This document shows positions 45,242 to 62,792 of a stretch of 64,000 nt of DNA, piece by piece. Below the pieces are notes generated by a model. That model searched no databases, had not been told where the DNA came from, and was given only the letters and a program-made list of their open reading frames with translations. How positions within the stretch are numbered: the first letter of the stretch is position 1; each line of letters opens with the position of its first letter. The stretch comes from Mustelus asterias (lineage: Eukaryota). The stretch covers positions 47,182,001 through 47,246,000 of the forward strand of contig NC_135810.1 in NCBI RefSeq assembly GCF_964213995.1. The letters run 5' to 3'. Made by a program: the position numbers and the translations under genes.

Positions 45242-46592
45242 GGTAAGTAGTCTCACAACACCAGGTTAAAGTCCAACAGGTTTATTTGGTAGCAAATACC
45301 ATAAGCTTTCGGAGCACTGCTCCTTCGTCAGATGGAGTGGAAATGTGCTCTCAAACAGTGCAAACAGACAAAATCAAGTTGCAGAATACTGATTAGAATG
45401 CGGATCCTACAGCCAGCCAGGCCTTAAAGGTACAGACAATGAGTGGAGGGAACATTAAACACAGGTTAAAGAAATGTGTATTGTCTCCAGACAGAACAGC
45501 TAGTGAGATTCTACAAGCCCAGGAGGCAAGCTGTGGGGGTTACTGATAATGTGACATAAATCCAACATCCCGGTTTAGGCCGTCCTCATGTGTGCGGAAA
45601 TTGGCTATCAGTTTCTGCTCAGCGACTCTGCGCTGTCGTGTGTCGTGAAGGCCGCCTTGGAGAACGCTTACCTGAAGATCCAAGGCTGAATGCCCGTGAC
45701 TGCTGAAGTGCACCCCCACAGGAAGAGAACAGTCTTGCCTGGTGATTGTCGAGCGGTGTGCATTCATCCGTTGTCGTAGCGTCTGCATGGTTTCCCCAAT
45801 GTACCATGTCTCGGGACATCCTTTCCTGCAGCGTTGGCCTGCCACAGCAACCTCTGCAAGACGTGCCGGATCATCGACACGGATGCCATCATCTCACGTG
45901 AGAACACCATCTACCAGGTACACGGTACCTACTCTTGCAGCTCGGCCAACATTGTCTACCTGATACGCTGCAGGAAAGGATGTCCCGAGGCATGGTGCAT
46001 TGGGGAAACCATGCAGACACTACGACAACGGATGAATGAACCCCGCTCGACAATCACCAGGCAAGACTGTTCTCTTCCTGTGGGGGAGCACTTCAGCAGT
46101 CACGGGCATTCAGCCTTGGATCTTCAGGTAAGCGTTCTCCAAGGCGGCCTTCACAACACACGACAGCGCAGAGTCGCTGAGCAGAAACTGATAGCCAAGT
46201 TCCGCACACATGAGGACGGCCTAAACCGGGATGTTGGATTTATGTCACATTACCAGTAACCCCCACAGCTTGCCTCCTGGGCTTGTAGAATCTCACTAGC
46301 TGTTCTGTCTGGAGACAATACACATTTCTTTAACCTGTGTTTAATGTTCCCTCCACCCACATTGTCTGTACCTTTAAGACCTGGCTGGCTGTAGGATCCG
46401 CATTCTAATCAGTATTCTGCAACTTGATTTTGTCTGTTTGCACTGTTTGAGAGCACATTTCCACTCCATCTGACGAAGGAGCAGTGCTCCGAAAGCTTAT
46501 GGTATTTGCTACCAAATAAACCTGTTGGACTTTAACCTGGTGTTGTGAGACTTCTTACCGTGTTCACCCCAATCCAACGCCGGCGTCTCCAC
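45242..46592 (+). mobile_element. Penelope-like element insertion with inverted duplication (GIY-YIG endonuclease C-terminus plus pLTR)
   Basis: Plus-strand ORF C..C...NIVYLIRCRKGCPEAWCIGET...LRQRMNE..GLN. The mirror ORF is on the minus strand at 45540-45845. ATCTATTTGGCAC occurs at 45229-45241 and 46593-46605. Confidence 0.92.
46460..46510 (+). ncRNA. Minimal hammerhead ribozyme motif in the PLE pLTR (mirror copy at about 45300-45340, minus strand)
   Basis: CTGACGA (46470-46476), stem GGAGC-agt-GCTCC, GAAA (46491-46494) and palindromic AAGCTT. Minimal hammerheads are an established feature of PLE pLTRs. Confidence 0.7.
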
Positions 46593-46768: not shown

Positions 46769-47077
46769 ATTGCTTCTCGGCCTTTTGGCTAAGATCAAGT
46801 GTAGTATCGACATGCTGTGCTTGGTTGAAGTCATCAGGTTTAGCTTCATTTGAAGCAATTTTTAAAAGCGGCATCTCGGCCTTTTGGCTAACATGCAAAT
46901 GAGATCAAGCCTTGGAGAAGGAGCTATGCCTACTCCAATCAGCTTGCATTGTGTAGTTCAAGCCCAAGACAGGAGGTGAGAGCCCTGTCTTGTCAGCTTG
47001 GATCGGGAATGTCTCAACTTGTTGAGACTCTGAATTGGACTTGATTTGATTGAATTGGAATAAAAATACAAAAAAAC
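46769..47077 (+). mobile_element. U2 snRNA-derived SINE-like element / chimeric retropseudogene
   Basis: 46769-46808 matches U2 nt 1-40 with one mismatch. A second diverged U2-like unit starts at about 46874, and the element ends in an AATAAA/A-rich tail. Confidence 0.75.
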
Positions 47078-47272: not shown

Positions 47273-47591
47273 TGGCACAGTGGCACAGTGGTTAGCACTG
47301 CTGCCTCACAGCACCAGGGATCCAGGTTCAATTCCAGCCTTGGGTGACTGACTGTGTGCAGTTTGCACTTTCTCCCCATGTTTGCGTGTGTTTTCTCCGG
47401 CTGCTCCAGTTTCCTCCCACAGTCCAAAGATGTGCAGGTTAGGTGGATTGGCCATGCTAAATTGTCTCTTAGTGTCAGGGGGATTAGTAGGGTAAATACA
47501 TGGGGTTATGGGGATAGGGCCTGGGCGGGTTTGTTGTCAGTGCAGGCTCGATGGACCAAATGGCCTCCTTCTGCACTGTAGGGATTCTAAT
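47273..47591 (+). mobile_element. HE1-like V-SINE
   Basis: SINE consensus with CR1-type tail. Confidence 0.88.
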
Positions 47592-48064: not shown

Positions 48065-48343
48065 ATAAAAGCAAATTACTGCGGATGCTGGAATCTGAAA
48101 CCAAAAGAGAAAATGCTGGGAAATCTCAGCAGGTCTGGCAGCATCTGTAAGGAGAGAAAAGAGCTGACGTTTTAAGTCCTGACGACCCTTTGTCAAAGCT
48201 CAAAGGCATAGAAAGACTTTCTATGATTTTCTATGCCTTTTAGCTTTGACAAAGGGTCATCTGGACTTGAAACATCAGCTCTTTCCTCTCCATACAGATC
48301 CTGCCAGACCTGCTGAGATTTCCCAGCATATTCTCTTTTGGTT
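48065..48343. mobile_element. Palindromic PLE-derived short element with 14-bp TSD
   Basis: Arms of about 120 bp are inverted around 48215. AATGGGACA(C/T)CTTT occurs at 48051-48064 and 48344-48357. Confidence 0.8.
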
Positions 48344-62708: not shown

Positions 62709-62792
62709 AGAGACATACAAGATCCAAGCTGACAAGAACAGACATTGCACCTGATCTTGGCCCTGATCTGACGCTTGATCTTAGCCAAAAGG
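62709..62792 (-). mobile_element. Second U2-derived fragment
   Basis: Minus strand reads ccttttggctaagatcaag (U2 nt 13-31) ... tctgttcttgtcagcttggatc, which shares cttgtcagcttggatc with 46989-47004. Confidence 0.6.

Follow-up and report, generated by a model that had tools for sequence, protein, structure and literature searches.

SINEU-1, -2, and -3 are U2-headed short interspersed elements (SINEs) of crocodilians described by Kojima in 2015 (PMC4494074). The relevant sections of PMC4494074 report that SINEU was not found outside crocodilians and that its target is Mariner-N4_AMi, with no U2-gene target, and they leave open how SINEU, an snRNA-headed element that lacks an internal promoter, is transcribed. 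Keno and Utopia are retrotransposons that share a 3′ junction in U2, as set out in the relevant part of PMC4640811. The literature searched here, which stopped short of Repbase Reports, Dfam, and subscription journals, contains no U2-headed SINE outside crocodilians.

The window analyzed here is a stretch of 64,000 nucleotides from the genome of Mustelus asterias (NC_135810.1, positions 47,182,001 to 47,246,000 of the forward strand), and it holds one copy of a dispersed, U2-headed family. This family is, with fairly good confidence, a high-copy non-coding retroposon that is likely moved by a Tx1/Keno-type LINE and likely transcribed from source copies resident in U2 genes. A first-pass annotation, made from the letters alone, had described the copy as a dimeric U2-derived SINE-like element, and all the motifs that it listed lie in the window where it had placed them. 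Its account of a start at U2 nt 1 and a match through nt 40 is borne out by the covariance check that it had proposed, in which Rfam RF00004 scores 46769-46808 at 52.4 bits. U2 identity stops at nt 40, and the window copy reaches 52 bits where true U2 genes reach 190. A functional U2 variant and a simple U2 pseudogene were both rejected, as the element is not a full-length U2 with stems and Sm site.

The second U2 unit that had been proposed is also real: for the stretch at 46874-46891, the window gives two exact matches and one with three mismatches, where 0.06 would be expected. The reading as a dimer with a spacer fails, as the supposed spacer is the head's antisense arm and the 3′ half arose by internal duplication of a hairpin module. 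The 9-bp stem reported at 46965-46973/46984-46992 is present and forms part of module 2. GTGTAGT is present too, but its reading as a second branch-point sequence was dropped: at every position involved, 28 of the 29 sister copies lack the substitution that it requires, and a second GTGTAGT occurs in just 1 of 79 full copies. The hairpin at 47011-47028 sits where the next stem of U2 would be. AATAAA (47059-47064) and the A-rich tail, which reaches 47076, are likewise as described, but AATAAA is not family-wide, being found in the tails of 32 of 79 copies. The AATTTTT stretch presumably resembles an Sm site.

The window copy is 97.6% identical to the majority sequence of its own subfamily. It carries a private 6-nt deletion after 46838, its hairpin module 1 is partly broken, and it contains T4 and T5 runs. 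The suggested check for a target-site duplication found none at this copy, whose two flanks have no common word longer than 4 nt. Coordinates are collected in the table.

Table. Features of the window copy (positions in the window)
Feature	Position	Strand	Remark
Whole element	46769..47076	+	One copy of a dispersed family
Head, U2 snRNA nt 1-40	46769..46808	+	39/40 identical to the genome's own U2 gene; Rfam RF00004
Antisense arm	46812..46840	+	Predicted pairing with U2 nt 11-39
Small hairpin, then AATTTTT oligo-T	46843..46863	+	
Second U2 piece (nt 4-27), stem I lengthened by three pairs	46871..46896	+	98.5% of cells paired
Octamer ATGCAAAT	46893..46900	+	Bridges the lengthened stem and the beginning of module 1
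Hairpin module 1	46897..46950	+	Stems conserved, loop varies by subfamily
Hairpin module 2, paralog of module 1	46951..47004	+	Contains the 9-bp stem
GTGTAGT	46951..46957	+	Product of a private mutation, no family feature
Diverged colinear similarity to U2 nt 40-~123	46985..47062	+	Shuffle test, moderate
3′ end, with short repeats of TTGA(A) type, AATAAA and A-rich tail	47029..47076	+	AATAAA is a trait of this subfamily

Other repeats lie elsewhere in the window. A degenerate second piece of the U2-headed family, or of a relative, occupies 62710-62792 on the minus strand and consists of U2 13-40 and a module-2-like stretch. The very common repeat of ~330 bp at 47282-47590, which we take to be an HE1-like tRNA SINE, also interrupts ORF2 of a U2-array LINE at L043. 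A 335-nt inverted repeat lies at 45500-46299, with 97% identity and 130 nt between its arms; the frame over it reads, on our assumption, like the GIY-YIG endonuclease end of a Penelope element, and Pfam gives no match for this frame at E 0.1. A second inverted repeat, at 48099-48343 (116 nt, 92%), is palindromic and produces chance microRNA matches below the gathering score.

The family is large, and the single-copy alternative that the first-pass annotation had set against its SINE-like reading fails. An internal 18-mer has at least 2657 + 2699 = 5,356 exact matches genome-wide and none for the reversed control, which puts the family at more than 5,000 copies. A genome search with the element returned 2,491 first-look candidates, of which 40 were scored, and the best of these are 94-95% identical over the full length and lie on many contigs. 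A motif of the window copy's subfamily has 408 matches genome-wide, and 29 sister copies match their majority sequence at 97.3-99.3%. The 79 full copies fall into 10 multi-copy clusters and 11 singletons. Divergence within clusters is 2.9-4.7% across all 10 multi-copy clusters, with the window copy's cluster biased toward best matches. These similar, low values indicate roughly simultaneous activity of many source genes, and a division into old and young subfamilies was therefore rejected.

Members of the family are non-coding, shorter than 500 bp, and dispersed, and they have a structure common to the copies and A-rich tails. Their 5′ ends range across U2 nt 1-16, and 26 of 80 copies begin at nt 1. 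Target-site duplications flank 36 of 87 copies, a count that omits three U2-site loci. The sequences around the copies are varied, with U2 genes and LINE ends among them; most dispersed sites have an A|T bias only. A family-wide ADAR signature was rejected: among the 66 of 79 copies with close neighbors, private A>G changes number 19 and T>C changes 21, in a test that dropped variants found in more than three copies (which would hide editing hot spots) and in which L079 lies outside the 66. At L079, the inverted copy of a pair has 20 differences, 14 of which are A>G on the sense strand. Head-to-head inversions at L079 1080-1993 and L131 1337-1651 break at element position 44, which is the first hairpin loop.

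The element RNA is predicted to fold as a row of hairpins, the first of which is made by the head and the antisense arm. Their predicted pairing comprises 25 pairs with two 2x2 internal loops and encloses the branch-point recognition sequence. The resemblance of the arm to reverse-complemented U2 is matched by 35 of 2000 shuffles for the window copy and by 6 of 2000 for another subfamily, and the arm's departures from reverse-complemented U2 mostly leave G-U pairs. Folding z scores are -3.9 for the window copy and -4.6 and -8.2 for two other folds. Judged by sequence, the 3′ half is an internal duplication of the hairpin module: the score of module 1 against module 2, taken on the majority sequence, is reached by 0 of 2000 shuffles. 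The last ~80 bases resemble U2 nt 40-123, and the significance is moderate: 12 and 16 of 2000 shuffles reach the score. For the small hairpin and oligo-T stretch, a U2 origin was rejected, as similarity to U2 is not significant and 1070 of 2000 shuffles score as high.

Across 39 copies aligned to the fold, 97% of cells are paired. One of 82 pairs is changed on both sides; it lies in module 2 and reads G-C in 25, A-U in 9, and G-U in 5 of the 39. The covariation score is above 500 of 500 shuffles, and the count of doubly changed pairs is not above shuffles (496/500). Inherited variation set against variation that arose after insertion makes a better control. For each of three reference folds, pairing is preserved at a higher rate by variants found in at least four copies than by private variants: 18/31 versus 39/134 (p 0.003), 18/31 versus 38/127 (p 0.006), and 13/17 versus 35/116 (p 0.0006). 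These statistics are to be read with the knowledge that the folds derive from family members, which biases them in favor of pairing, and that shared variants are not independent events. The better preservation of pairs by shared variants suggests that RNA structure was under selection in the source genes. The arm would likely serve to keep the U2-like start of the RNA away from the spliceosome and from introns, with the result that source genes are tolerated. Such a head-masking arm would offer a concrete and testable reason for the tolerance of a U2-like parasite RNA.

The genome's true U2 genes stand in 1.8-kb and 8-kb arrays on contig C24, and the 8,035-bp array unit contains a LINE. Its ORF1 is Tx1-like, with a ZCCHC3-type RBD/zf-CCHC, and its ORF2 reads APE-RT-zf-RVT; the domain search of the array LINE reported no RLE domain. 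The LINE is bounded by U2 13-58 before and U2 38-191 after, with a 20-bp duplication, and its U2 3′ junction is the Keno/Utopia junction as PMC4640811 describes it in the relevant part. The array copies are frameshifted, and one copy outside the array has open frames of 364 and 1,144 aa. At G000:C24:44815000-44936000, the frameshifted LINE has been amplified along with the U2 array in at least 16 near-identical units. At L044 2125-6019, three adjacent array U2 genes have a short internal duplication at ~nt 15-37, and these duplications were probably left by insertions that were aborted. Full-length LINE copies at dispersed sites are U2-headed too, and in three of them the head starts at nt 1, 2, and 4. 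At the LINE 5′ end (L046 345-404; L149-L151), the U2 head is followed by an antisense arm of its own that differs from that of the SINE. The LINE arm has a fold z of -3.2, it is carried by 40 scored copies of 83 candidates, and both arms leave U2 nt 23-24 in a 2x2 loop.

The SINE and this LINE meet at the same sites. The proposed search for copies embedded in U2 arrays or genes found eight exact junctions of SINE tail and U2(40-58), against zero in the control; six are full copies and two are tail-only relatives. The six full copies adjoin U2 nt 39 onward, at the junction U2 nt 38|39, which upholds the suggestion that the element targets U2 at the Keno/Utopia junction. Of 99 consecutive gaps, 10 are shorter than 600 bp, against 0.1 expected. 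Because copies sit inside U2 genes at the site of the LINE, the SINE likely takes both the LINE's enzymes and the U2 promoter, and the Tx1/Keno-type LINE is the likely helper. The comparison of 3′ ends that had been proposed found no significant similarity between the SINE and the last 300 nt of the resident LINE (402 and 1223 of 2000 shuffles as high), and a classical SINE/LINE pair with a shared 3′ tail was rejected. L051 was likewise rejected as a tail-donor LINE, as it has no LINE frame upstream. Short elements at L051 1440-1545 (minus strand) and L054 1482-1523 have a related tail and a different body and continue into U2 39 onward; they are possibly sister families.

A cycle can be proposed on this basis. 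The SINE would insert at U2 38|39, where its head would replace U2 1-38, and the U2-resident copy would be read from the external U2 promoter with a start at +1. The LINE protein would then capture the transcript in trans and insert it at relaxed A|T-type sites. There the dispersed copy would be promoterless and would decay as the window copy has. A wider version of this model is possible, though we hold it tentatively and on the doubtful side: the LINE and SINE would form one lineage that parasitizes the U2 unit, in which the U2 head is a promoter dock, the elements' own antisense arms lock that head, the SINE is an RNA of the Pol II snRNA promoter selected to evade the spliceosome, and the U2 arrays are its nursery.

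Evidence on the promoter comes from five loci that carry the SINE from U2 +1 behind U2 upstream DNA. At L118 (4551), the SINE stands at +1 behind the main-array upstream sequence (300 nt, 99.7%), in the order SINE, truncated LINE, second SINE, and rest of U2; this copy is decayed and has no second U2 piece. At L085, L086, L088, and L089, the SINE follows 240-270 nt of variant-U2 upstream DNA, and three of these four loci continue into U2 39 onward. Short pieces of variant-U2 upstream DNA also form 5′ extensions on copies at L087, L089, and L091. The variant U2 (Rfam 175.5 bits) occurs in 448-bp tandem units at L085/L052, L086, L088, and L089, on several contigs and between LINE ends; these scattered units were perhaps transduced from an unseen array. 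Because the spacer of the clusters is only 263 nt and LINE ends flank them, they may be transduced fragments with no working promoter.

The same LINE could also act on read-through transcripts, from unrelated upstream promoters or from the LINE, with template switching onto abundant U2 snRNA restoring the exact U2 +1 end each time. A +1 start can arise by switching, since truncated LINE copies that lie outside U2 (L129, L131) carry U2 heads as well, and extra U2 pieces stand in front of SINE copies at L005, L087, and L091. Exact-pattern searches found no U2-promoter-linked source gene of the window copy's own subfamily, with patterns that under-count in that they missed L118, and for crocodilian SINEU the relevant text of PMC4494074 favors switching and flanking promoters. 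This account is nonetheless unlikely. It is opposed by the five loci at +1, by the 5′ flanks of dispersed copies, which have nothing in common apart from the U2-upstream pieces, and by the head-arm junction, which is fixed within each subfamily. Promoter borrowing is the simplest reading because the SINE sits at +1 behind U2 upstream DNA and LINE copies are U2-headed as well. The first-pass idea that the element hijacks U2 promoters thus stands as something that we infer from the +1 copies, none of which belongs to the window subfamily.

Two further accounts concern the promoter and the enzyme. An internal promoter, in the octamer or in some other element, could drive dispersed copies, and the octamer is exact in 71 of 79 full copies, while the existence of at least 10 multi-copy subfamilies, all of similar age, means that there were many sources. 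The octamer lies where the first-pass annotation had seen it, but its reading as a hijacked snRNA distal sequence element was rejected: it is within the transcribed part, it overlaps a paired stem, the extended U2 stem I, whose 3′ strand is formed by the first four octamer bases, and positions beside it are equally conserved. The exact octamer was not found within 1.5 kb of four scanned U2 gene loci, near which the best octamer-like site has two mismatches (at -232/-244). The octamer is likely a by-product. Rfam gives U2 only over the element, with no tRNA, 5S, or 7SL head, and T4-T5 runs, which terminate Pol III, lie inside it; a classical Pol III SINE was rejected on these grounds, and an internal promoter is very improbable. 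The argument from internal oligo-T against Pol III is also made in the relevant part of PMC4494074. It is equally hard to credit that another LINE (CR1/L2/RTE type) or Utopia moves most copies and that those at U2 sites are a side effect. The lack of a tail common to the SINE and the Tx1 LINE would suit this, as would the A|T bias of most dispersed sites and, from the relevant part of PMC4640811, the same 3′ junction and 20-bp duplications of Utopia in reptiles. However, the SINE lies directly beside four of six long LINE copies (LINEs fetched for their ORF2) and is stacked at Tx1 LINE ends at L009, L023, L048, L053, and L123 as well, and the resident U2-site LINE has an APE domain. A U2-headed retroposon moved by the Tx1/Keno-type LINE remains the preferred reading. 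Helper LINE, intact U2 arrays, +1 copies, and thousands of recent dispersed copies all occur in one genome, which makes the promoter-borrowing model directly testable.

The comparison with known systems can be drawn from the relevant parts of PMC4494074 and PMC4640811. As in Keno (both sources), the helper LINE has APE and RT domains and a 3′ junction at U2 nt 39, and the SINE uses the same junction. Unlike Keno, the SINE is non-coding, has no significant similarity to the LINE body or tail, and is relaxed in its specificity, most copies lying outside U2. Utopia, as covered in PMC4640811, has the same 3′ junction, a 20-bp duplication in reptiles, and weakened specificity in some lineages; it is an RLE retrotransposon, whereas the LINE described here has an APE endonuclease. 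The promoter inferred for the SINE would come from the target gene, as in the R2-type co-transcription cited in PMC4494074. The SINE differs from R2-type elements, as characterized there, in that Rfam detects no ribozyme and the target's first 38-40 nt are retained as its head.

SINEU is the closest parallel. Its U2-derived head, length below 500 bp, A tail, mixed duplications, and internal oligo-T, as given in the relevant sections of PMC4494074, all recur here, as do tandem insertions around a duplication and the repeated 5′ addition of U2 pieces. Specifically, the Mustelus asterias family has the snRNA head, short length, A tail, target-site duplications, added U2 pieces, and Tx1-LINE targets of SINEU, and two U2 5′ pieces lie within the element itself. 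In both systems, a Tx1-type helper is suggested by shared targets, and the helper families are U2-headed; like SINEU-1 in PMC4494074, the element has no tail in common with its helper LINE. Unlike SINEU as described in the text of PMC4494074, Mustelus copies occur at the 38|39 site within U2 genes and also downstream of U2 upstream DNA, U2 arrays are still home to their helper LINE, and a fold-back arm accompanies the head. The likeness described is one of structural features, and the origin of the family was presumably independent of crocodilian SINEU. The family would take SINEU-type elements beyond crocodilians.
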